Source: a bacterium | Lineage (GTDB): Bacteria > Ratteibacteria > UBA8468 | DNA length: 28,088 bases | Reading direction: 5' to 3' | Assembly: GCA_030637775.1 (NCBI GenBank) | Contig: DAOWFY010000140.1 | Span: forward strand, 1-28,088 | Part shown: positions 12,208 through 28,088 of the stretch, in pieces | Layout: the number at the start of each line of letters is the position of its first letter | How positions within the stretch are numbered: position 1 is the first letter of the stretch | The notes under the pieces: model-generated | Databases searched by the model: none | What the model saw: the letters and a program-made list of their open reading frames with translations, nothing else | Told to the model about the DNA's origin: nothing | Position numbers and translations under genes: made by a program

Positions 12208-13224
12208 ATGGACAATTTACCTTTGGTTTCAATAATTATTCCCTGCCGCAATGAGGAAAAATTCATTGAGAAATGTCTTGATTCCATTGTCTTACAGGAT
12301 TATCCCAAGGAGAGCTTAGAGGTTTTGGTTGTCGATGGGATGAGTGGGGATGGGACAAGAGATATTATAAGAAGCTATGCGCAAGAGCATTCCTTTATCG
12401 GGCTTCTGGATAACCCAAAGAAAATCACTCCTTGTGGATTAAATACAGGCATTAAAAATGCAAAGGGAGAAATTATTTTATGGATGAGTGCCCACAACAG
12501 ATATAAGAAGGATTATATATCAAAATGCATTAAGTATCAGAAAGAATATAATGCCGATAATGTGGGTGGGAGGATGGTAACTCTACCCAGGAATGACACC
12601 TTTATCGGCAAAGCTATAGTTAATGTCTTATCTCATCCTTTTGGCGTTGGCAATTCCATTTTCAGAATAGGCGCAAAGAAACCGAGATGGGTGGATACCG
12701 TGTTTGGTGGCTGCTATAAAAAAGAGGTTTTTGATAAAATTGGGCTTTTCAACGAGAATCTTGCCCGAGGTCAGGATATGGAATTTAATTTAAGGTTAAA
12801 AAGAGCGGGACTGAAAACTTTATTAGTCCCTGAGATTGTAAGTTATTATTATGCCCGCTCTGACTTTAAGTCATTTTATAAGTATAATTTTGTAAATGGG
12901 TTCTGGGCTATTCTTCCTTTTAAATTTACCAAGATAATGCCTGTTTCCTTAAGGCATTTGATTCCTTTTATATTTGTTCTTAGTTTAATGGGGAGTGGAA
13001 TTCTCTCCTTCTTTCTTCCTCTCTTTCGCCGGATATTTTTGCTTATTGTTGGTCTATATTTCTTGACCAATATCTATTTTTCCCTTAAAATTGCCTTAAA
13101 AAAGAAAAATATAAAATACCTGTTTATGATGCCGATAGTATTTGCATCACTTCATACAGGATATGGTTTAGGTTCAATCTGGGGGGCGATAAAATTGTTG
13201 TTGCCGGGCAAAAAGAAGGATTAA
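12208..13224 (+). CDS. Glycosyltransferase family 2 (ExoA-like)
   Basis: VSIIIPCRNEE, VVDGMSGDGT, FNENLARGQDMEFNLRL, and C-terminal hydrophobic helices. Confidence 0.9.
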   Translation: MDNLPLVSIIIPCRNEEKFIEKCLDSIVLQDYPKESLEVLVVDGMSGDGTRDIIRSYAQEHSFIGLLDNPKKITPCGLNTGIKNAKGEIILWMSAHNRYKKDYISKCIKYQKEYNADNVGGRMVTLPRNDTFIGKAIVNVLSHPFGVGNSIFRIGAKKPRWVDTVFGGCYKKEVFDKIGLFNENLARGQDMEFNLRLKRAGLKTLLVPEIVSYYYARSDFKSFYKYNFVNGFWAILPFKFTKIMPVSLRHLIPFIFVLSLMGSGILSFFLPLFRRIFLLIVGLYFLTNIYFSLKIALKKKNIKYLFMMPIVFASLHTGYGLGSIWGAIKLLLPGKKKD

Positions 13225-18832: not shown

Positions 18833-20642
18833 GATGATGATGAAAAAGGGAATTTTTTTTCTATTAATCGCCGATATCATCCTTATTTATTCGGCAACAA
18901 TCTTAGCCTTCTGTATCCGCTTTCCTGACTTTCTGACCACACCTAACTTTCAGGCATACCAACCGATTGCTGTCTTTCTTGTAGTCATTAAACTTATTGT
19001 TTATTTGCTCTTTGGTCTCTACGGTGGAATCTGGAGGTACGCCAGCATTAATGAAGCCTTCTCTATATTTAAGGCAGTAACTGTAGCCTCCTTAGCAACG
19101 ATCGGTTTTGTCTTCTTTGTCCGGGTTCTTTCCTTTCCCCGTTCAGTCCTTCTGCTTGATTGGTTTTTCAATCTCCTTTTTATCGGTGGGGTAAGGTTTG
19201 CTCTCCGGTTGCGTAAAGAATTTCGAAAGCGTCAAGTGGCTCCCAACAAGCGGTTACTCATTATGGGAGCCGGCGATGCCGGGGAGATGGTCTTGCGTGA
19301 GATTCAGAAACACCCCGAGTTAGGTTATAAGGTTGTAGGCTTTATCGATGATGACTTAAAAAAGGTGGGAAGAAGAATCCATAATTTAGGGGTTTTAGGA
19401 ACAAGAAGGGAAATTGCCAGAATCGTTTCCCAGAAGAATGTTAATGAAATTGTTATCGCCATCCCTTCTGCCTCGGGGAAGACGATTAGAGAAATTGTCA
19501 GTTATTGCGAAAGGACAAGGGCAAAGTTAAAGATTCTACCCGGAATGTATAAGGTCATTAAGGGAGATGTGACTATCTCCCAGATCAGGGAGGTAAAACC
19601 AGAGGATCTTTTGGGCAGAGAGACGATTGAGATAAACTTAGAGGAGATCTCTCAATATTTAAGGGATAAATCTGTACTTGTCACCGGAGCAGCCGGCTCC
19701 ATCGGTTGCGAACTTTCCCGTCAAGTTATGAAATTTAACCCTAAGAAACTTCTCCTTTTGGATAATAATGAAAACGAGACCTATTTCCTGCAGATGGAGT
19801 TAAAGAAAAAGGAACATTCATTCCCGATCATTTTTCTTGTCAATGATATCAAAGAGAAGCAAGTCTTAGAGGCGATCTGGAAAGAGCACCAGCCAGAGGT
19901 AGTTTTCCACGCCGCCGCACACAAGCATGTTCCCTTGATGGAGGAAAATGTTGTTGGGGCAGTGAGAAATAACGTCCTGGGAACAAAAAATTTAATGGAG
20001 GCAGCAAAAAAAACGGAGAGGTTCATTCTTATCTCCACCGATAAGGCGGTGAATCCAAAAAGTATTATGGGGGCAACCAAAAGAATTACTGAATTAATGA
20101 TGCAACTCTCTACAAATGAAACAAAATTCTGTGCGGTGAGATTCGGCAATGTCCTGGGAAGTAAAGGAAGTGTAATTCCCCTCTTTAAAAAACAGATTGC
20201 CGAAGGTGGTCCGGTAACCGTAACCCATCCGGAAATAAAGCGCTACTTTATGAGTGCCCGGGAGGCGGTCAGCCTCATCATTCAGGCCGGAGCAATGAGT
20301 AAAGGTGGGGAGGTCTTTATTCTCGATATGGGAGAGCCGATAAAGATTATTGATTTAGCAAAAGACCTCATCACCCTCTCTGGTCTTCAACCGGAGACCG
20401 ATATTCCTGTTAAGATTATTGGTCTTCGTCCGGGAGAGAAGCTCAACGAGGAACTACTGACCGCCGAGGAGGGTATAAAAGCTACCAAGCATAAGAAGAT
20501 CTTTGTTGCCAGACCGGATACTGTTAATCCAGAAGAGTTACTAAAAGACCTCGATGATTTAGAAAGACTTACTCTCTCCGGAGAAAGAGATTCGATCGTC
20601 AAAAGGCTTCAGAAGATGAGGGTATTGCGAGGAGATGAATGA
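18831..20642 (+). CDS. Membrane-bound UDP-GlcNAc 4,6-dehydratase (PglF/CapD/WbpM type)
   Basis: N-terminal TM helices; two Rossmann motifs (GAGDAG; TGAAGSIG); HAAAHKHVP; STDKAV; MGATK; VRFGNVLGS. The real start may be ATG 18837 or 18840. Confidence 0.92.
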   Translation: MMMMKKGIFFLLIADIILIYSATILAFCIRFPDFLTTPNFQAYQPIAVFLVVIKLIVYLLFGLYGGIWRYASINEAFSIFKAVTVASLATIGFVFFVRVLSFPRSVLLLDWFFNLLFIGGVRFALRLRKEFRKRQVAPNKRLLIMGAGDAGEMVLREIQKHPELGYKVVGFIDDDLKKVGRRIHNLGVLGTRREIARIVSQKNVNEIVIAIPSASGKTIREIVSYCERTRAKLKILPGMYKVIKGDVTISQIREVKPEDLLGRETIEINLEEISQYLRDKSVLVTGAAGSIGCELSRQVMKFNPKKLLLLDNNENETYFLQMELKKKEHSFPIIFLVNDIKEKQVLEAIWKEHQPEVVFHAAAHKHVPLMEENVVGAVRNNVLGTKNLMEAAKKTERFILISTDKAVNPKSIMGATKRITELMMQLSTNETKFCAVRFGNVLGSKGSVIPLFKKQIAEGGPVTVTHPEIKRYFMSAREAVSLIIQAGAMSKGGEVFILDMGEPIKIIDLAKDLITLSGLQPETDIPVKIIGLRPGEKLNEELLTAEEGIKATKHKKIFVARPDTVNPEELLKDLDDLERLTLSGERDSIVKRLQKMRVLRGDE

Positions 20643-21844
20643 ATGCCCGAGAAAAATTGGTGAACCACTTAGAAAATATTGTAGAAATCTTTTTTCTCCT
20701 CTCGGTCTTCTGCATCCCTGCCGGTCCCGTCCTAAAGTATATCTTCCAGGGCGTTCTTCTTTTTACCTGGATTGTTAAACTTATCGTAAAAAGAGGAATA
20801 GAATTTAACCCTACCTCTCTGGATTACCCCATCCTTCTTTTCGTTATTCTTGGTTTTGCCTCTGTCGTCATAAATTATACGACATTTTATCAAGCCGGGA
20901 AGGGCTTTTCCAATCTCTTGGAATGGTTCTTTGCCTTTTACATTATCGTCCATCTTATCAGAAGAAAGGAACAGCTTAAAAGATTTACCAAGGTCTGGCT
21001 TTTCTCCGCCCTTACCGTTACCTTATATGGTATTTATCAAATTATAAGAGAACCAGGAGGTGCTGTAATCAGCTCCTTTTTCACTCTTAACTCCTATCTG
21101 GCTCAATACCTTGTCCTTATTATGCCGGTAATCCTTGCGCTCCTTCTCTTTAAAAAAACAAAAAAGGAGGGCTCCCGTCCGGTGGACGGGATGGGGAGAA
21201 TCTTTTTGGGAATAATCCTTCTTTTAACCTGGTTTCTCCTTGGCTTAACTATGGAAAGAGGTCCCTGGTTAGGAATCATAGTTGGACTTCTGATGATGGG
21301 GATAGTTCTTCGGGATAAGCGCATCCTTATCGGAATCCCCCTTCTCCTTATGTTGAGCTTCTTTATCTCTCCTCCATCCATCAGAATAAGAGCCATCTCT
21401 ATCTTCCAGCCACGCTGGAGTTTAGAAAGGCTTTACTGCTGGAGGTCTTGTCTCTCAATGACTAAAGACCATCCCTTCTTTGGGGTGGGATTGGGCAACT
21501 TCCGTTATGTTTACCCAAAATATATGCTCGGCGCAGCAAAGGTGAAGTTCCTGCATGCCCATAATATCTTCTTCCAGATTGCTACCGAAATGGGAATCCC
21601 GGGACTGCTTGTTTTCCTCTGGCTATTGTTTAATTTCTTTAAAGCCACCCTTTCTCACATTCAGAAAGACAAATACTTAAGAGCCCTGAATGTAGGTTTT
21701 TCCGCGGGAATCATTGCGATATTGGTCACCAGCCTTTTCCATGATATCTTTCATAGCCGGCAGATTGCCACTTTAACCTGGTATATTATCGGAATGGCGA
21801 TAGCCTCTCATAAGCTGAAAGATCAAGAGACCCCCGGCGATTAA
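20639..21844 (+). CDS. O-antigen ligase family protein (WaaL/Wzy_C)
   Basis: Multi-pass; ERGPW, HPFFGVGLGNF, HAHNIFFQIATEMGIPG. Confidence 0.82.
   Translation: MNAREKLVNHLENIVEIFFLLSVFCIPAGPVLKYIFQGVLLFTWIVKLIVKRGIEFNPTSLDYPILLFVILGFASVVINYTTFYQAGKGFSNLLEWFFAFYIIVHLIRRKEQLKRFTKVWLFSALTVTLYGIYQIIREPGGAVISSFFTLNSYLAQYLVLIMPVILALLLFKKTKKEGSRPVDGMGRIFLGIILLLTWFLLGLTMERGPWLGIIVGLLMMGIVLRDKRILIGIPLLLMLSFFISPPSIRIRAISIFQPRWSLERLYCWRSCLSMTKDHPFFGVGLGNFRYVYPKYMLGAAKVKFLHAHNIFFQIATEMGIPGLLVFLWLLFNFFKATLSHIQKDKYLRALNVGFSAGIIAILVTSLFHDIFHSRQIATLTWYIIGMAIASHKLKDQETPGD
21164..21194 (+). repeat. 31-bp SD-hairpin-ATG element, copy 1 (in-frame in the ligase gene)
   Basis: AAGGAGGGCTCCCGT-ccggtgg-ACGGGATGG; 27/31 identical to 26531-26561 (-). 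Confidence 0.8.
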
Positions 21845-22552
21845 AAAGATGAAAAAGGAGATGACCTGGGTAGGATAAAGGGAAAAGAAAACCGGATTTA
21901 AGTTACCTCTGAGAAAATCTATACTATATCGAGATATGGAATAGAGGAGGAAATAGAAAATTACAATATTTCCATCTTTTGCCCAAGGAGAAAGACTCTT
22001 TTTCTGTTTGCAAAGAAAGAGCAAAATTAAAAAAATTGAAAAATTACTCAAGCTATAGTACAGTTGTGTTGGATGTCGGGATATACCGTCGAAGGGAAAC
22101 CTTGCCCCCCAGAAAAAATCCGTTTCTTTGCCATAGCAGCAGCCGTTAAGGAAGCAGCCAATCCTTCCTATTGCTTGCGCCAAAGGGAGGTAGAGCCCAA
22201 AGTAATCCAATACCCTTAGGGTTGGCAGGCCTGTTCTGCGCAGAAAGAATATTGCCGCGAATAGACCAAAGATGAGGCCTCCTTGAGCCGCCATTCCTCC
22301 GTGGCGGATGGCAATGACTTCGGCAGGATGATGAAGATAGTAGGAGAAATGAACAAGGATATGCAGTAACCTTGCCCCAAAAAGCCCGATGATAACAACC
22401 AGAAAGACAATATTTAAGAGAGCTTCTTCATTCAGTCCTTCCTTTCTTCCGCGGCGTAGCACCAGGAAGCTAACCCAGAGGACTGAAAAAGCAATGACCA
22501 CACCATAGGAATAGATAGCAAAATTACCAATCTTAAAGAGGACGGGATGCAT
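21773..22552 (-). CDS. lgt: Prolipoprotein diacylglyceryl transferase
   Basis: MHPVLF, YSYG, GARL, GRIGCFLNGCCYG, HPTQLY, RYSIDFLR. Confidence 0.9.
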   Translation of the reverse strand: MHPVLFKIGNFAIYSYGVVIAFSVLWVSFLVLRRGRKEGLNEEALLNIVFLVVIIGLFGARLLHILVHFSYYLHHPAEVIAIRHGGMAAQGGLIFGLFAAIFFLRRTGLPTLRVLDYFGLYLPLAQAIGRIGCFLNGCCYGKETDFFWGARFPFDGISRHPTQLYYSLSNFSIFLILLFLCKQKKSLSPWAKDGNIVIFYFLLYSISRYSIDFLRGNLNPVFFSLYPTQVISFFIFLIAGGLLIFQLMRGYRHSDNIPG

Positions 22553-22705
22553 TTGCTGTGAGAATTATCTGAAAGTTAATCTATCCGCATATTTGCTACA
22601 AGATTAATTTGAAAGTTAACTTTCGCATATTGCTACTGAAGTAGCCTGATAGTACAGTCTCGCAATTCCCTACTGAAGACAACTTGATTAGGAAGTAGCG
22701 GAATT
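22553..22705 (+). repeat. Dispersed promoter-like palindromic element, copy B (with internal tandem duplication)
   Basis: Homologous to 11331-11447. A unit of about 35 nt is duplicated (22563-22599 and 22603-22636). Abuts the lgt ATG and contains the lspA stop. Confidence 0.85.
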
Positions 22706-23128
22706 TTTTATCTCATGAATTAACAGAATTATAATTCCAATTGTGATGCCACTATCGGCTAAATTAAAGATCGGCCAAACCCTGAAATCAAGGAAATCAA
22801 TCACCGCCCCAAATCTTACCCGGTCGATAAGGTTTCCCAAAATTCCTCCTGTGATAAGTCCGGTTGCTATCCTTTGAGCTCGATTCCTTCTTGCTCTTCG
22901 CAAGAAAAATATAAGCATACCTATTGCTAAGAGAGATAGGACCAGATAAAATAAAAGGGGGATTTTCCCTTTGAAGAGGCCAAAGGAGATCCCAGGATTT
23001 TTAATGTAGGTAAGATACAAAAGATGAGGGATAAGCACAACCGATTGACCCTGGTATAGAGAAAGTCTGACCAAATATTTTGTCAGCTGGTCAAAAAAAA
23101 GGACAATAATCCCAACCCAAATGGACAT
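22688..23128 (-). CDS. lspA: Lipoprotein signal peptidase II
   Basis: DQLTK, NPGISFG, GNLIDR, VIDFL, FNLAD (both catalytic Asp). Start set at ATG 23128; the upstream ATG 23155 lies inside an inverted repeat. Confidence 0.93.
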   Translation of the reverse strand: MSIWVGIIVLFFDQLTKYLVRLSLYQGQSVVLIPHLLYLTYIKNPGISFGLFKGKIPLLFYLVLSLLAIGMLIFFLRRARRNRAQRIATGLITGGILGNLIDRVRFGAVIDFLDFRVWPIFNLADSGITIGIIILLIHEIKNSATS

Positions 23129-23163
23129 ATGGACATGGGGGTCAGGTCTCAACATTTGACAAA

Positions 23164-23245
23164 CTTACGACACCATACTTTCTGCTTACTTTAGTAGTAA
23201 TATGCGGATAGCCCCTGATTAAATCAGGGGTACTCACAGCAAATG
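23164..23245 (-). repeat. Dispersed promoter-like element, copy C (inverted, partial, nested in the 146-bp element)
   Basis: Minus strand reads CATTTGCTGTGAG...CTATCCGCATATTACTACTAAAGTAAGCAGAAAGTATGGTGTCG. The first 13 nt are identical to copy B. Confidence 0.8.
23212..23230. repeat. Perfect 9-bp-stem palindrome inside copy C
   Basis: CCCCTGATT-A-AATCAGGGG; replaces an unrelated segment of about 18 nt present in copies A and B. Confidence 0.8.
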
Positions 23246-23261
23246 TTTATTTGGTAAATTG

Positions 23262-23639
23262 TCAAATGTTGAGACCTGACCCCTCATCTTTCTTCTGGCA
23301 GGCAATGCAAAGTCTGGCATAAGGAAGAGCGCGCAGCCTCTTTTTGCCAATCTTTTTACGGCATTCCTCGCAAATCCCAAATAATTTTTTTTCAAGTTTT
23401 GCCAGAGCATTATTAATTTCTACGATCAGTTTACCTTCGGAAGAGGCAAGATCCAGGTCCAAATTTTTCTCAAAGTTATCACTGGCCAACTCAGCCAAGT
23501 GTGTTGGAATACCTGGATTCTCGCCTTCTACCTGTCTCAACTCCAAACTACCCTTCTGGAGAGCTCCAATCGCCTCTAAAATTCTAATCTTTTCCTTGAT
23601 CAGCAATTTTTTGTATTTCTCCCTTTCCTTTTTATTCAT
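23262..23639 (-). CDS. TraR/DksA C4-type zinc-finger protein
   Basis: Coiled coil with tip THLAELASD; CEEC...RLRALPYARLCIAC. Second Met chosen because a purine-rich SD precedes it (alternative start 23654). Stop lies within the 25-bp inverted repeat. Confidence 0.85.
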   Translation of the reverse strand: MNKKEREKYKKLLIKEKIRILEAIGALQKGSLELRQVEGENPGIPTHLAELASDNFEKNLDLDLASSEGKLIVEINNALAKLEKKLFGICEECRKKIGKKRLRALPYARLCIACQKKDEGSGLNI

Positions 23640-23650
23640 TTTCCTTCCCC

Positions 23651-24115
23651 TCATAAATCAAAGATAATTCTTGTTTGCCAGAGATTTGGCTTTTTCTGTA
23701 ATACTTTCAGGTTATGGTAAGTAGCAGCTTTTATCTCCCTTTTTGGGATTTGGCTATTTTTTTTAATCTTTCCCTTCAGGCAAAATCTATTTTTTATCTT
23801 TCCAATCTTAATTTTGAATTGAGCAAAAATTGCTTTTTCCTTCTCCGCAAGATAGAGCAGTTCGTTAAGGAAACTTACCAAAAGTTCCTCCAAGGTTTTT
23901 GCTGTAACCTTAATTTTGAATTCAATACCATAGGAATTTCCTTTGTAGGGGCTTGATTTATCAAGCCCGCGGGTCGGATGAATCCGACCCCTACACAGTT
24001 TTCCTCCCGCGATGATGCTAAACATCCCGGCTGCGCTCTCTGTAAAGAGTTCCTCCTTGCTCTTCCCTTCGATCAAAAGTCCAATATCTGCCGTATGGTC
24101 AATGACCCGAAACAT
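23651..24115 (-). CDS. Archease (RtcB activator family)
   Basis: [27 protein letters not shown]-terminal IFDL; SD GGAGGG inside the gyrA 3' end. Confidence 0.9.
23944..23995. repeat. GTAG-type REP doublet (REPIN-like) inserted in-frame in archease
   Basis: TGTAGGGG...CCCCTACA ends enclosing two perfect 9-bp stems: GGGCTTGAT-tt-ATCAAGCCC and GGGTCGGAT-ga-ATCCGACCC. Confidence 0.85.
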
Positions 24116-26591
24116 TACCCTCCTCCATCAGGATAACGGAGATATCGCCAATGAAGTCCCCTTTATCTAAGTTAATCAGTTTTACGCCCTGAGTGTTTCT
24201 TCCGATGGGACGGATATCCTTCACGGGAAGGCGAATAATTATCCCTCTTGTGGTAATCAGCATAATCTCATCATCAACGCTTACACTCTTGATGCCCACA
24301 ACATCTCCATTCCTCCCCTTGGTCTTGATATCAATAATTCCCTTGCCACCCCTCTTCTGTTTCCGGTAAAGTTTAACCTTGCTGCGCTTTCCAAAGCCAT
24401 TGGCCGTGACGGTAAGCAGGGAATAATCTTCTTCGGCCACCTCGGCTCCTTTTACCAAATCGCCCTTGGACAGTCTAATTCCACGCACCCCTCTTGCGGT
24501 CCTCCCCATCGGCCGGACATCCTCTTCAGAAAAGTGAATCGATTTACCCTCTCTGGTGGAGAGAATAAGGTCCTTTTTTCCATCGGTAAGTTTTACCTCA
24601 ATCAACTCATCATCCTTTTTCAGGGTAAGAGCGATGATTCCCCCGCGCCTTTGGTGGCTATAGGCAGAAACAGCGGTCTTCTTCACCATTCCCTTCCTGG
24701 TTGCCATCAGCAGAAACAGATTGGCAGAATATTCCTTAATGGGAATAACGGCGGTAACTACCTCCTCGGTGCTAATCTTAAGAAGATTGATGATTGCCTT
24801 TCCCTTTGACTGTCGACTGGCTTCCGGAATCTGATAGGTGGGGAGCCAGTAGACCCGGCCCTTATTGGTGAAGAATAAAAGGGTATCATGGGTAGAGGCA
24901 ATAAAGAAATGCTTGATGTAGTCCTCATCCTTGGTTCTTGCCCCAATGATCCCTTTTCCTCCTCGGTGTTGCCTGCGGTAGGTATCTACCGGAACCCGTT
25001 TCACATAACCGGAGGCAGAAATCGTAATGGCAACATCCTCCTTTTTCACTAAATCAATCTCGGAAAGATCCTCTATTGCCCCAATAATCTTTGTCCTGCG
25101 CTGATCACCAAATCGCTTTTTCAAAGCCGCTAAATCATCCCTAATTACACCGGAAATCTTTTTTTCGCTGGCAAGAATAGACTTCAGTCGCTGAATCTCT
25201 TTTGTCAGTGCTTTGTGTTCCTCATCTATTTTTTCCCGCTCCAATTTAGTCAGACGAGAAAGGGGCATCGCGAGGATGCTGTCGGCCTGAATGGAAGAAA
25301 GTTTAAATGTTTTTATCAGAGAGGATTTAGCTGCTTCCACACTACTGCTCTTTTTGATGAGCTTTATCACCCGATCGATATGCAGGAGAGCAATCTTCAA
25401 ACCAGCAAGGATATGGGCTCGATTCTCTGCTCTCTTCAACTCAAATTGGGTGCGCCGCCTCACCACCTCTCTTCTGTGCTCTAAATAGTGAATCAGCAGT
25501 TCCCGAAGGGGGAGTATTCTTGGTCGATTTTTGACAAGAGCGAGATTAATAATGCCAAAACTGGTGCGCAATGCGGTATGCTTATAGAGTTGATTAAGGA
25601 TAACGTCGGGGTTTTCCCCTGATTTTAGTTCAATGCAGATCCTCATCCCCTCCTTATCGGACTCATCGCGGATTGTGCTGATTCCTTCAATTTTCCTTTC
25701 CTGGGCAAGTGTCGCAATATTTTCGATGAGAGCGCTCTTGTTTACTTCATAGGGGAGTTCCGTAACAATTAAAGCGGCTCTTCCCCTTTCCAACTCCTCT
25801 CCTTTTACCTTGCTCTGTAAGGTAATGATGCCCCTTCCCGTGCGGTAAGCCTCCAGGATTCCTTTTCTTCCGCAGATAAAGCCCCCGGTGGGGAAGTCCG
25901 GTCCGGACAAGACCTTCATCAATTCTTCCAGGTTGCTATCCGGTTTCTCAATCAGAAGAGTAAGGGCATCGATTACCTCATTAATGTTATGGGGAGGGAT
26001 GTTGGTTGCCATGCCCACGGCAATGCCTGAACTGCCATTAAGAAGAAGATTGGGGAGGGAGGAAGGAAGAATGGTTGGCTCGGCCAATGTCCCATCGAAA
26101 TTTGGCGCAAAATTGACCGTTTCCTTATCGATATCGGAGAGAAGAGAAGAGGCAACAGGGGAAAGCCTTGCTTCGGTATACCTCATTGCTGCCGGAGGGT
26201 CTCCATCAACCGAGCCAAAATTTCCCTGACCATCAATAAGAGGGTATCTCAAGGAAAAATCCTGACACATCCGGGTAATGGTGTCATAGATCGCCGCATC
26301 CCCATGGGGGTGATATTTTCCCATCACCTCACCAACAATTCTGGCACTCTTCTTGTAAGGCTTGCCGACAGTTACCCCTAATTCAGACATTCCGTAGAGA
26401 ATTCTCCGGTGCACCGGTTTTAGACCGTCCCTGACATCGGGAAGAGCCCTTCCCACAATAACGCTCATCGCATAGTCAATGTAGGAAGATTTCATCTCCC
26501 TCTCAATCTCTACCGGAACTACCCTCTTCTCCATCCCGTGCACAACACGGGAGCCCTCCTTAACTATCACCTCTTTTTCTTTCTTCACCAT
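24099..26591 (-). CDS. gyrA: DNA gyrase subunit A
   Basis: [26 protein letters not shown] catalytic Tyr, GyrA-box-like QHRGGKG, C-terminal pinwheel blades. Alternative start at 26534. Confidence 0.97.
26531..26561 (-). repeat. 31-bp SD-hairpin-ATG element, copy 2 (5' end of gyrA)
   Basis: Minus strand AAGGAGGGCTCCCGT-gttgtgc-ACGGGATGG. Confidence 0.8.
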
Positions 26592-26635
26592 TTTATTTTT
26601 TATTGGTTTTTATTGTTTTTTCTTTCTCCCGAGAG

Positions 26636-26728
26636 ATGACTGAAGTTTGTGAGCGAGTTGGCGGTTATGCTCCCAGAGCACGATAGTGCCGAGGAATAAG
26701 AAAGCCCGAGCGAACAAACTTTAGTCAT
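26636..26728. repeat. 93-bp element with 15-bp terminal inverted repeats, copy 1
   Basis: ATGACTGAAGTTTGT ... ACAAACTTTAGTCAT (14/15 match); internal mini-hairpins GCTC-cca-GAGC and GCAC-gata-GTGC; contains the ATPase stop codon. Confidence 0.85.
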
Positions 26729-27978
26729 TTCTTATCACTTTTTGTCATTCTCAGAACATCAGGAAGAGCAACAATTCCCAAGACGCTCTTCTTCATTCCA
26801 TCCTCGCGAAGAGTCTGCATTCCCGCTTTTCGAGCCCCCTCCTTGACTCCCTCGGTGGGAGCTTTCTCCAGGATTAATCCTCTAATCTCTTCATTGGTAA
26901 CCATCAATTCAAATAGTCCGGTCCTTCCCTTATATCCCGTGCCATTGCATTCGTTGCATCCCTCCCCGCGACAAAAGAAGGAAGCCTCTTCCCCCCTCTC
27001 CTCAATCCTCCCCCCTTGAGGGGGAGAAGATAGGTGGGGGGGTAAATTCAGTTCTGCAAGTACTTCCGGTGAAGGTTGGTACTGCTTTTTGCAGGAATCA
27101 CACAGGGTGCGTACCAATGTTTGTGAAAGAACACCGATGACCGAGGAGGCAATCAGGAAGGGTTCAACCCCCATATCAATCAGCCGGGTAACAGCTCCAG
27201 GGGCGGTATTGGTATGCAAAGTGGCAAAGACAAGCTGGCCGGTCTGGGCTACCTGAAAAGAGATGGAAGCGGTCTCTGCATCCCTAATCTCGCCGACCAT
27301 AACCACATCCGGGTCCTGTCGTAAAATTGAGCGAAGCCCCGTGGCAAAGTTCATCCCGGCCTTAGGATTGATTTGGGCCTGAACAAGGCCGGGGATATGG
27401 TATTCCACCGGATCCTCAATGGTAATGATATGGGTTCGGGCCGATTTAATCTTGTTAAGGGAACTATAAAGGGTAGTGCTTTTTCCCCCGCCGGTAGGAC
27501 CGGCAACCAAAATGATGCCGTAGGGCTCTTCCAAAATCTTCTGGTAGCGGGCAAGAGTCGGAGGCTGAAATCCTAACTGGTCAAAACCTAAAAGAATATT
27601 GCGCTTATCCAGGATTCTAATCGCCACCGCCTCACCAAAGATGGTAGGATAGGTGGAGATACGCAGATGCACCCCTCCACCCTTAACCGTGGCTTTGTAG
27701 GCTCCACTCTGGGGAATGCGTCTTTCTGCAATATCCAAATTTGCCAGGACCTTGATTCTGGTAACAATCGCCTGATAAAATTCTCTCGGTGGGGGGTCGA
27801 AGTTATAGAGAAGTCCATTGATTCTAAAACGAAGGGAGGTGGTCTCCTCGGTCTCTAAATGGACATCGGTGGCCTTCTGCTCCACCGCCTGAGAGAGAAT
27901 AGAATCGACAATGGCGGTAGCCGAGGAATATTCCGTTTCCGAAATTTTAGCTTTAGTAAAATCAAGTCTCTCCACCAT
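26725..27978 (-). CDS. GspE/PilB family secretion/pilus ATPase, lacking the usual N-terminal domain
   Basis: ATDVHLE, LDIAERRIPQ, Walker A GPTGGGKST, TIEDPVE, LRQDPDVVMVGEIRD, TLHTN, CDSC...CNEC, GYKGR. ATG 27978 preferred over TTG 28014. Confidence 0.9.
   Translation of the reverse strand: MVERLDFTKAKISETEYSSATAIVDSILSQAVEQKATDVHLETEETTSLRFRINGLLYNFDPPPREFYQAIVTRIKVLANLDIAERRIPQSGAYKATVKGGGVHLRISTYPTIFGEAVAIRILDKRNILLGFDQLGFQPPTLARYQKILEEPYGIILVAGPTGGGKSTTLYSSLNKIKSARTHIITIEDPVEYHIPGLVQAQINPKAGMNFATGLRSILRQDPDVVMVGEIRDAETASISFQVAQTGQLVFATLHTNTAPGAVTRLIDMGVEPFLIASSVIGVLSQTLVRTLCDSCKKQYQPSPEVLAELNLPPHLSSPPQGGRIEERGEEASFFCRGEGCNECNGTGYKGRTGLFELMVTNEEIRGLILEKAPTEGVKEGARKAGMQTLREDGMKKSVLGIVALPDVLRMTKSDKK
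26991..27042. repeat. C/G-rich imperfect palindrome inserted in-frame in the ATPase zinc-binding loop
   Basis: CCCCCC...CTCCCCC-cttga-GGGGGAG...GGGGGGG; encodes PPHLSSPPQGGRIEERG. Confidence 0.7.
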
Positions 27979-28031
27979 AATATATACACACAGACAATGG
28001 TCGTTGCGCAGCAATCATTAAGTAATTACAG

Positions 28032-28088
28032 GAGATGACTGGGGTTTGGAAGCGAGTTGGCGGTTATGCTCCCAGAGCACGATAGTGC
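28032..28088. repeat. 93-bp element, copy 2 (cut by the window end)
   Basis: 53/57 identical to 26633-26689, same orientation; the last 38 nt are identical. Confidence 0.9.

Follow-up and report, generated by a model that had tools for sequence, protein, structure and literature searches.

The question raised by this locus is why so many short palindromic repeats stand in and against the genes of a single 7-kb stretch of bacterial DNA, and whether together they form a system. The window analysed here is the whole of one contig (C12, 28,088 nt) from a 1.40-Mb metagenome-assembled genome (G000) of an uncultured lineage. The assembly has 177 contigs, is 83.5% complete and has a cold-seep metagenome as its best-matching public run. 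An earlier note had read the repeats as several non-autonomous elements, mobilised in trans, that act as a kit of portable expression signals and peptide modules. The observation largely held, and the repeats proved more extensive than it suggested, but its interpretation was borne out only in part. The analysis indicates that the stretch is probably typical of a genome in which many families of short, non-autonomous mobile repeats that fold into hairpins have settled, and not an organised system.

Comparison of the stretch with the genome by BLAST revealed seven discrete segments that recur, with 8–48 other matches each. Single-linkage clustering of self-BLAST intervals was dropped because nesting chained all of them into one cluster, and iterated profile searches for each family (nhmmer), seeded from the 7-kb stretch, were used instead. 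These gave six families with 23–58 loci each in the 1.4-Mb assembly:

Family A: 27–29-nt hairpin (GGAGG, 7-bp stem, ATGG), 23 loci
Family B: AT-rich modules with CTAC...GTAG palindromes, 58 core loci
Family C: 25-nt inverted ends that start GGGGTCAG, 56–58 half-sites
Family D: 50-nt GTAG repetitive extragenic palindrome (REP) doublet, 25 loci
Family E: rod-like palindrome of ~100 nt, 29 loci
Family F: G/C-rich palindrome of ~50 nt, 39 loci

The repeat types that the earlier note had described were all present where it placed them and recurred genome-wide. Its word 'unrelated' was too strong, as B modules are cargo in the C doublet of the window and are also found in the leader of a C-bounded transposase gene. 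Repeated DNA made up 7.3% of the assembly (689 intervals in a self-comparison), and many further families remained once the six had been removed, the largest with 63 segments of ~150 nt. This largest residual family is G/C-rich with palindromic ends and has no copy in the window (examples are C175:3830-3987, C165:9626-9770 and C134:1299-1471), and at least a dozen other small repeat families accompany it in the genome. A search of positions 20500–28088 against Rfam at E ≤ 1 returned two chance matches only, therefore none of the repeats is a described RNA family.

The distribution of the families was followed across the phylum sample in GTDB, which contains 65 species genomes. The comparison genomes were one of the same genus (G001), two of the same family, f1 (G002 and G003), and two of a sister family (G012 and G020). 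A, C, E and F were essentially confined to the four genomes of family f1, with one or two weak near-matches (2–3 mismatches) for C and F in genomes of family f4. D was found letter-for-letter also in family f2; it gave 117 matches in G012, and its pattern was present in 8 of the 65 genomes. Half-sites of C numbered 39–51 in G001 and G002. Near-exact copies of A numbered 14 in G000 compared to 1–4 in the relatives, and the exact 29-mer of A occurs nine times in the genome.

The copies in the window were the following:

21166–21194, plus strand: first A copy, in frame in wzy, adding GSRPVDGMG in a Lys-rich loop
22553–22706, plus strand: B array of modular AT-rich units that fills the lgt–lspA spacer
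23138–23283, no strand assigned: C doublet with perfect 25-nt inverted ends (23138–23162 and 23259–23283) that start GGGGTCAG
23945–23994, no strand assigned: D, in frame in archease, a pair of hairpins flanked by GTAGGGG and CCCCTAC
26530–26559, minus strand: second A copy, in frame in the N-terminal tail of gyrA, with a variant loop and a compensated stem
26631–26731, plus strand: first E copy, ~100 nt with 18–20-nt inverted ends, between the ATPase gene and gyrA
26993–27042, no strand assigned: F, in frame in the T2SSE-type ATPase, where it is read as PPHLSSPPQGGRIEERG
28032–28088, plus strand: second E copy, cut by the contig end
11331–11447, plus strand: a further B-family copy, found by the profile searches

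The genes that surround these copies in the stretch were assigned with Pfam:

20639–21844, plus strand: Wzy_C O-antigen ligase (wzy)
21773–22552, minus strand: lgt
22688–23155, minus strand: lspA
23262–23654, minus strand: DksA-type zinc-finger protein (dksA-like)
23651–24115, minus strand: archease
24099–26591, minus strand: gyrA
26725–28014, minus strand: T2SSE-type ATPase

Empty orthologous sites were found for A (twice), F, D, E, B and C. As the sister genomes lack the inserts at these same sites, the repeats are insertions. The A copy in wzy was a clean 27-nt gain seen in G000 only, the segment being absent from the orthologues of G001 and G002, and the A copy in gyrA was also unique to G000, with a 27–30-nt segment absent from G002 and G003. 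F in the ATPase was common to G000 and G001 at the same codon position and was absent from G002 and G003; D in archease was common to the same two genomes, again at the same codon position, and was absent from G002. E was missing from the 64-nt ATPase–gyrA spacer of G002. The lgt–lspA spacer, which holds B in G000, contained other, mutually unrelated palindromes in G001 and G003 and measured 20 nt only in G002, so that this spacer is an insertion hot spot. The C doublet stood at the same junction in G000 and G001 with a different filling. The repeats have also entered each other: at two loci (C127:2101-2129 and C167:2329-2357) an A copy sits within the central loop of an F copy. The presence and absence at orthologous sites supported the earlier view that several non-autonomous palindromic families are or were mobile. 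The claim that archease (D), the ATPase (F), the ligase (A) and possibly GyrA (A) translate repeats was upheld for all four, and orthologues in sister genomes are without these segments.

Two of the inserted peptides were compared with solved structures, and both fell at alignment gaps. The F insert of the ATPase aligned to a 15-residue gap relative to EpsE (4ksr), between two CxxC pairs, and the D region of archease was ~19 residues longer than PDB 4n2p, between residues 39 and 51. The gyrA copy was located in the N-terminal tail. A start of gyrA at the ATG inside this A copy was considered and ruled out, since G002 and G003 both retain the MKKEKE start that lies upstream of it.

Several side observations concern the same sites. 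The archease gene of G001 (L009, G001:C124) carries a 38-nt palindrome nested in its D copy, and the wzy gene of G001 has two other inserts, one of them ending ...APTKGNSYTV (D-like). The DksA-like protein has a 14-residue insert in G001 and a 5-residue insert at the same position in G002. The region of G002:C15 (L010) at ~1358–1410, orthologous to window 23130–23290, contained only a 27-nt hairpin, GGGTTAGGTC-aaaaa-CCTGACCC, which corresponds to the outermost 10 nt of each C end and could be an excision footprint or an ancestral hairpin. A tandem pair of A copies was found in dnaX (C93:5117-5171). The D copy of archease carries an extension, GGAAATTCC, to ~23930 that is translated along with it, the two together giving 17 residues. 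The near-palindromic motif TATAGGAATTTCC (window 23930–23944), read as KGNSY in archease, stands beside 9 of 22 D copies and 2–3 F copies and probably belongs to a longer D unit.

Contigs of four public runs were aligned to the stretch. None skipped an in-gene insert, and the contigs broke at the repeats, so they are uninformative on whether the population is polymorphic. Many contigs joined the C ends (joints 23161 to 23260) with other fillings of 30–36 nt, each starting TAA... and ending ...TTA; these came from the source run and from two environmental runs of other studies, one a sediment metagenome. The constant C ends carry highly variable cargo in nature. Depth spikes at D were seen in the source run and two other runs, and D-type REPs are therefore common in those runs.

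Placement across the genome was measured against gene models built from open reading frame (ORF)-based calls (1507 genes, 92% coding), with random 50-nt placements as the control, of which 5.6% were intergenic and 78% deep in genes. Placement was strongly non-random, which supports the earlier note in this respect, and whether genes or spacers were preferred depended on the family. Intergenic copies made up 22/29 of E, 36/58 of B and 32/58 of C compared to 5.6% for random placement, while copies deep in ORFs made up 21/23 of A, 16/25 of D and 21/39 of F compared to 78%. An in-gene copy was taken as supported when the same-frame coding signal extended for at least 30 codons on both sides of it; strong coding support was present for 14 of the 16 D loci deep in ORFs. 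In total 55 copies of A, D and F were well-supported in-frame insertions, in ~48 genes or ~3% of all genes, and Pfam domains were clear in 38 of the 40 host proteins tested. The hosts included GyrA, TopA, PolA, DnaX, FtsK, RecJ, UvrA, UvrC, PheT, AlaRS, Asd, aspartate kinase and RibD. Some of the host genes are located as follows:

C167:394-2934: polA
C93:4658-6280: dnaX
C53:920-2764: recJ
C3:2-2365: uvrA
C25:11497-12948: uvrC
C84:3327-5411: topA
C47:2179-4179: ftsK
window 24099–26591: gyrA

By a rough estimate, ~12 of the 55 in-frame insertions lie in genes for DNA replication, repair or topology, compared to ~3 expected by gene length. Intragenic REPs in replication and repair genes, and REP ends that donate stop codons, have been remarked on before (Di Nocera et al. 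2013, PMC3733652).

The in-gene copies were read in several frames, and those of D and F also in both orientations. The same repeat DNA thus yields different peptides, so that a conserved protein motif is excluded. Of the six frames of a copy, the number free of stop codons averaged 5.8 for A, 3.8 for F, 2.9 for D, 1.3 for E and 0.7 for B. This open-frame count predicts which families are found in genes and which between them, and therefore fits insertion followed by purifying selection. Copies would insert more or less anywhere, and selection would then remove those that break genes. B and E, with stops in nearly all frames, would survive only between genes, often against a gene end to which they donate the stop codon, and the loss of disruptive copies would also explain why intergenic copies so often touch gene ends. 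A, F and D, which are G/C-rich with open frames and lengths that are a multiple of three, would survive in genes as Gly/Pro/Ser/Arg-rich loop insertions, as Rickettsia palindromic elements (RPEs) do, and the resulting peptides are presumably neutral. For the transposition chemistry of the repeats, we infer that C and D probably insert as single-stranded hairpins handled by HUH enzymes.

The gene ends of the window illustrate this contact between repeats and coding sequence. As had been claimed, three genes end within repeats, with the lspA stop codon in B, that of the dksA-like gene in C and that of the ATPase gene in E. The lspA stop (22688–22690) is inside the end unit of the B array, and the ATG of lgt (22550–22552) abuts the same array, also as claimed. 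The C doublet encloses a B-core module (23165–23242, minus strand), and its right end contains the dksA-like stop, TGA at 23262–23264, and encodes GSGLNI*. The left C end contains the first ATG of the lspA frame; this ATG is unlikely to be the real start codon. The TGA of the ATPase gene (26725–26727) is supplied by the last 7 nt of the first E copy. These assignments rest on the sequence itself and on protein alignments, in which the C-terminal residues differ from those of the sister genomes. The claim that the wzy stop (21842–21844) abuts a repeat failed, as no family matched there even at E ≤ 100. The wzy and lgt genes are convergent with a 72-nt overlap (window 21773–21844). G001 and G002 have the same overlap, and the C-termini of both proteins are conserved there.

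The transposases that could move the repeats were sought by a profile search that covered five families, Y1, DDE_Tnp_1, rve, IS110 and TnpB. The contig itself gave no match to these five, other families not being searched, in line with the earlier statement that no transposase is present. Elsewhere in the genome two Y1 transposase genes were identified (C119:11445-12383 and C86:2001-2945). Both encode proteins of ~313 aa (Y1_Tnp, E = 1e-15) that are 56% identical to each other. The best NCBIfam model was the REP-associated tyrosine transposase (RAYT; REP_Tyr_transpos) at 68–75 bits, just below the cut-off of 80. A match to Bac_DnaA_C at residues 249–277 (E = 6e-7) was below the Pfam gathering score, and homologues carry PF08299 and PF01797. 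The HUH and catalytic Tyr motifs were intact in both proteins, as HYH at 60–62 and YIHLNP at 119.

Inverted C ends, starting GGGGTCAG, bound both Y1 genes (C119 11441–11465 / 12600–12624; C86 ~1941–1965 / 2924–2949). The leader of the C119 gene holds four B modules, and the same C-bounded layout was found in G001:C157. The C ends, counted here as 56 half-sites, occurred as 18 inward pairs that enclose 2–153 nt, as one TIRtron of 1134 nt and as 20 solo copies, and the C end fits the published motif GGGGWSAS of the TIR-associated tyrosine transposases (TIRYT; PMC3733652, PMC6006769). On this sequence evidence C is assigned as the repeat family of a TIRtron and the Y1 genes, with their helix-turn-helix (HTH) tails, as TIRYT. 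With >8000 homologues, the family of the Y1 proteins is very large; many of the homologues carry the label RayT, and one, 60% identical, is labelled candidate division WS2. A scan of named genomes for relatives of the Y1 proteins gave two loci only. In the sister family, a RAYT gene (~150 aa) has a D array on either side (G012:C47 and G020:C186). Mobilisation in trans, as proposed in the earlier note, was therefore supported for C, by the two Y1-HTH/TIRYT genes elsewhere in the genome, and for D in related genomes only, and found no such support for A, E and F. By class, the C ends are TIRtron inverted repeats, sometimes with B modules, D is a classical GTAG REP doublet, E is MITE-like (miniature inverted-repeat transposable element) and A and F are small palindromes.

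Several results weigh against the reading of the repeats as mobile elements sorted by selection. No RAYT flanked by D was found in G000, where, at 83.5% completeness, the sole Y1 genes identified were the two bounded by C. For A, E and F the searches gave no enzyme: the DDE_Tnp_1 (2), rve (2) and IS110 (1) genes of the genome are not flanked by them and TnpB gave 0, with Tn3, IS630, IS256 and integrases not searched. No target-site duplication could be defined where the flanks of A and E were tried, the flanks being too ambiguous or diverged (for A it is possibly GGA/GGAG). The gene models are ORF-based calls with no trained gene finder behind them. Finally, A and E show a strand polarity that a pure selection filter does not explain. 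Of the 22 gene-internal copies of A, 21 were in the sense orientation (p = 1e-5), despite all six frames being open. E was antisense to co-directional neighbours in 19/19 cases in G000 and 5/5 in G001–G003 (24/24), lying 0–20 nt after the upstream stop codon; the first E copy of the window is accordingly antisense to both the ATPase gene and gyrA. A purine-rich target preference was tried as the cause of the polarity of A and rejected: such motifs are only 68–72% sense, so 21/22 is not explained.

The orientation flips with gene direction within one contig, C12 for A and C53 for E, which argues for a link to transcription and not to replication, on one contig each. The polarity might be caused by selection against very stable hairpins in operon mRNAs, by strand-specific integration of a single-stranded hairpin, or by an RNA role. 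It is possible, though we regard it as doubtful, that the fixed orientation of A and E relative to transcription arises because they integrate into single-stranded DNA exposed by transcription or act as RNA, and that A has recently burst in this genome, favouring replication and repair genes. If so, A, at 27 nt and frame-neutral, would be the smallest known mobile peptide-inserting element. A short variant of E (C37:2572-2682 and C63:10291-10354) has lost the inner ~45 nt and kept both ends. It also keeps an 18-nt 5' extension, CTAAGGACAAGAAATTGC, that many of the full copies share, so the E element could exceed 100 nt or favour a particular target.

An RNA role can also be framed on its own, with E, and perhaps A, kept for RNA structure, either as an intercistronic processing or stability hairpin or as antisense small RNAs. 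We consider this unlikely. The invariable position of E between co-directional genes, and the flips of E on C53 and A on C12, count in its favour, and ERIC and Correia elements act in this way (PMC10969869). The folding of E is also asymmetric owing to G-U pairs, at -42.7 compared to -33.7 kcal/mol on the two strands (~-43 kcal/mol for the first E copy of the window), and its apical hairpin shows compensatory changes (GCAC/GTGC, GTAT/ATAC, ATAC/GTAT). However, the stronger folder is the strand absent from the mRNA, and a DNA hairpin that a transposase recognises would be expected to show compensatory changes just as well. Orthologous spacers lack the copies, neither a promoter nor a terminator is apparent, and the Rfam search at E ≤ 1 gave no match.

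The domesticated kit of the earlier note, in which the repeats are kept as promoters, ribosome-binding sites, stop codons or terminators and useful peptide loops, is improbable. It draws on the three stop codons that repeats supply in the window, on the strict polarity of A and E relative to genes, and on the working promoters that Correia elements carry (PMC10969869). Promoter-like strings also exist: the C end contains TTGACA, with TATATA 16 nt on in the C119 TIRtron, upstream of the transposase gene, and the B consensus holds TTGCTA-17-TATAGT. A scan with the sigma70 consensus nevertheless called no site at 9/12 or better inside the B, C and E copies of the window, so the repeat that had been taken for a promoter was not recognised as one, and the motif in B points away from the Y1 gene and antisense to lspA. 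Orientation relative to neighbouring genes showed no bias: B copies pointed the same way in 16 cases and the opposite way in 18, and C copies in 25 and 19. The resemblance of A to a ribosome-binding site survived only as its GGAGG string, as its ATG is in frame in just 10 of 22 copies, and those are mid-gene. A terminator scan gave a count equal to the shuffled expectation; one hit (21173–21196) was the A hairpin inside wzy, and a second terminator-like hit (26998–26978, minus strand) overlapped the edge of F. Close relatives were without the inserts at every site examined, one spacer holds three unrelated palindromes in three genomes and none in the fourth, and the peptides vary by frame with none conserved. 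The prediction of the in-gene families by open-frame count is the result expected from a selection filter on selfish DNA, not from a kit.

That the repeats are an artefact of misassembly or chimeric binning is suggested by the 177 contigs that often end in E (E copies at contig edges number 5 in one count and 7 in another) and by Logan contigs of the source run that break at every repeat, but it can be dismissed as highly improbable given a deposited assembly (GCA_023128075.1) 100% identical over 2561 nt including A, B and C, F and D at the same codon positions in G001, inserts that keep the frame with coding signal continuing on both sides, and families that recur in the three other genomes of family f1. 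The repeats do break assemblies, shift predicted ORFs (the lspA start and the ends of dksA, lspA and the ATPase gene) and add spurious low-complexity peptides to protein databases.

The reading of the stretch as a sample of mobile repeats filtered by selection was compared with systems already described. The TIRtrons and TIRYT of Di Nocera et al. 2013 (PMC3733652), the TnpAREP subclass 2.1 of Quentin et al. 2018 (PMC6006769), resemble C in the ~313-aa Y1 HUH transposase with its DnaA-C-like HTH tail, in the long inverted repeats GGGGWSAS (here GGGGTCAG) and in the scattered singles and dimers. The TIR families of the published account are only moderately abundant and rare (PMC3733652, PMC6006769), whereas ~56 half-sites are present here in 1.4 Mb. 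The doublet fillings, of 2–153 nt and some with GTAG-bearing B modules, are a further difference, as are two diverged TIRtrons (proteins 56% identical) in one small genome. Intact TIRYT genes together with an abundant family of their ends make this a clear TIRtron case, a pairing that is uncommon and untested according to the literature.

D is comparable to the GTAG REPs, REPINs and RAYTs (Bertels and Rainey 2011, PMC3116915; Di Nocera et al. 2013), as each half consists of GTAG and a GGG-stem-loop-CCC, the halves form inverted doublets and D flanks a small RAYT in G012 and G020. It differs in that ~2/3 of its copies are in genes here and not mainly extragenic, that no cognate RAYT was found in the assembly, and that an identical 50-mer is present in two families of the phylum.

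The in-frame families A, D and F recall the RPEs (summarised in PMC10969869 and PMC3733652), which are also in-frame palindromes in unrelated housekeeping genes, translated and absent from orthologues, with several families per small genome. RPEs form extra surface peptides, and the peptides of A, D and F may do the same. A, D and F are shorter (27–50 nt compared to 100–150 nt) and unrelated in sequence, belong to families f1 and f2 of another phylum, a possibly free-living cold-seep lineage, and are read in several frames with no single conserved peptide. They are an analogue of RPEs and not members. Housekeeping genes invaded in frame by palindromic repeats have been known chiefly from Rickettsia, and the scale in this genome, at ~3% of genes, is comparable; the genes hit encode, among others, gyrase, topoisomerase I, Pol I, the clamp loader, UvrA/UvrC and tRNA synthetases. 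With several families side by side, the lineage offers a natural test of what sets residence in genes or between them.

E is similar to Correia/NEMIS and ERIC MITEs (PMC10969869) in its ~100-nt length, 18–20-nt ends, lack of coding capacity, long hairpin and position in transcribed spacers at gene 3' ends. MITE promoters, RNase III sites and RPE fusions have been described (PMC10969869). E differs in being strictly one-way (24/24), and no TA or other target duplication was seen in its flanks and no promoter or IHF site identified. As for Correia, no transposase could be assigned to it, and none of the transposase genes identified in G000 is bounded by E ends. By analogy only, A is a mobile 24–27-nt hairpin that also inserts into other repeats (in F). 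The cyanobacterial very small dispersed repeats (SDRs) of Elhai et al. 2008 are reportedly of this kind, at 21–27 nt. A differs from these in that nearly all of its copies are inside genes and that it is locked to the coding strand. The kinds of element in this genome (REP/RAYT, TIRYT, MITE and RPE-like) are thus already known, and it is their sequences, lineage and density that are new.

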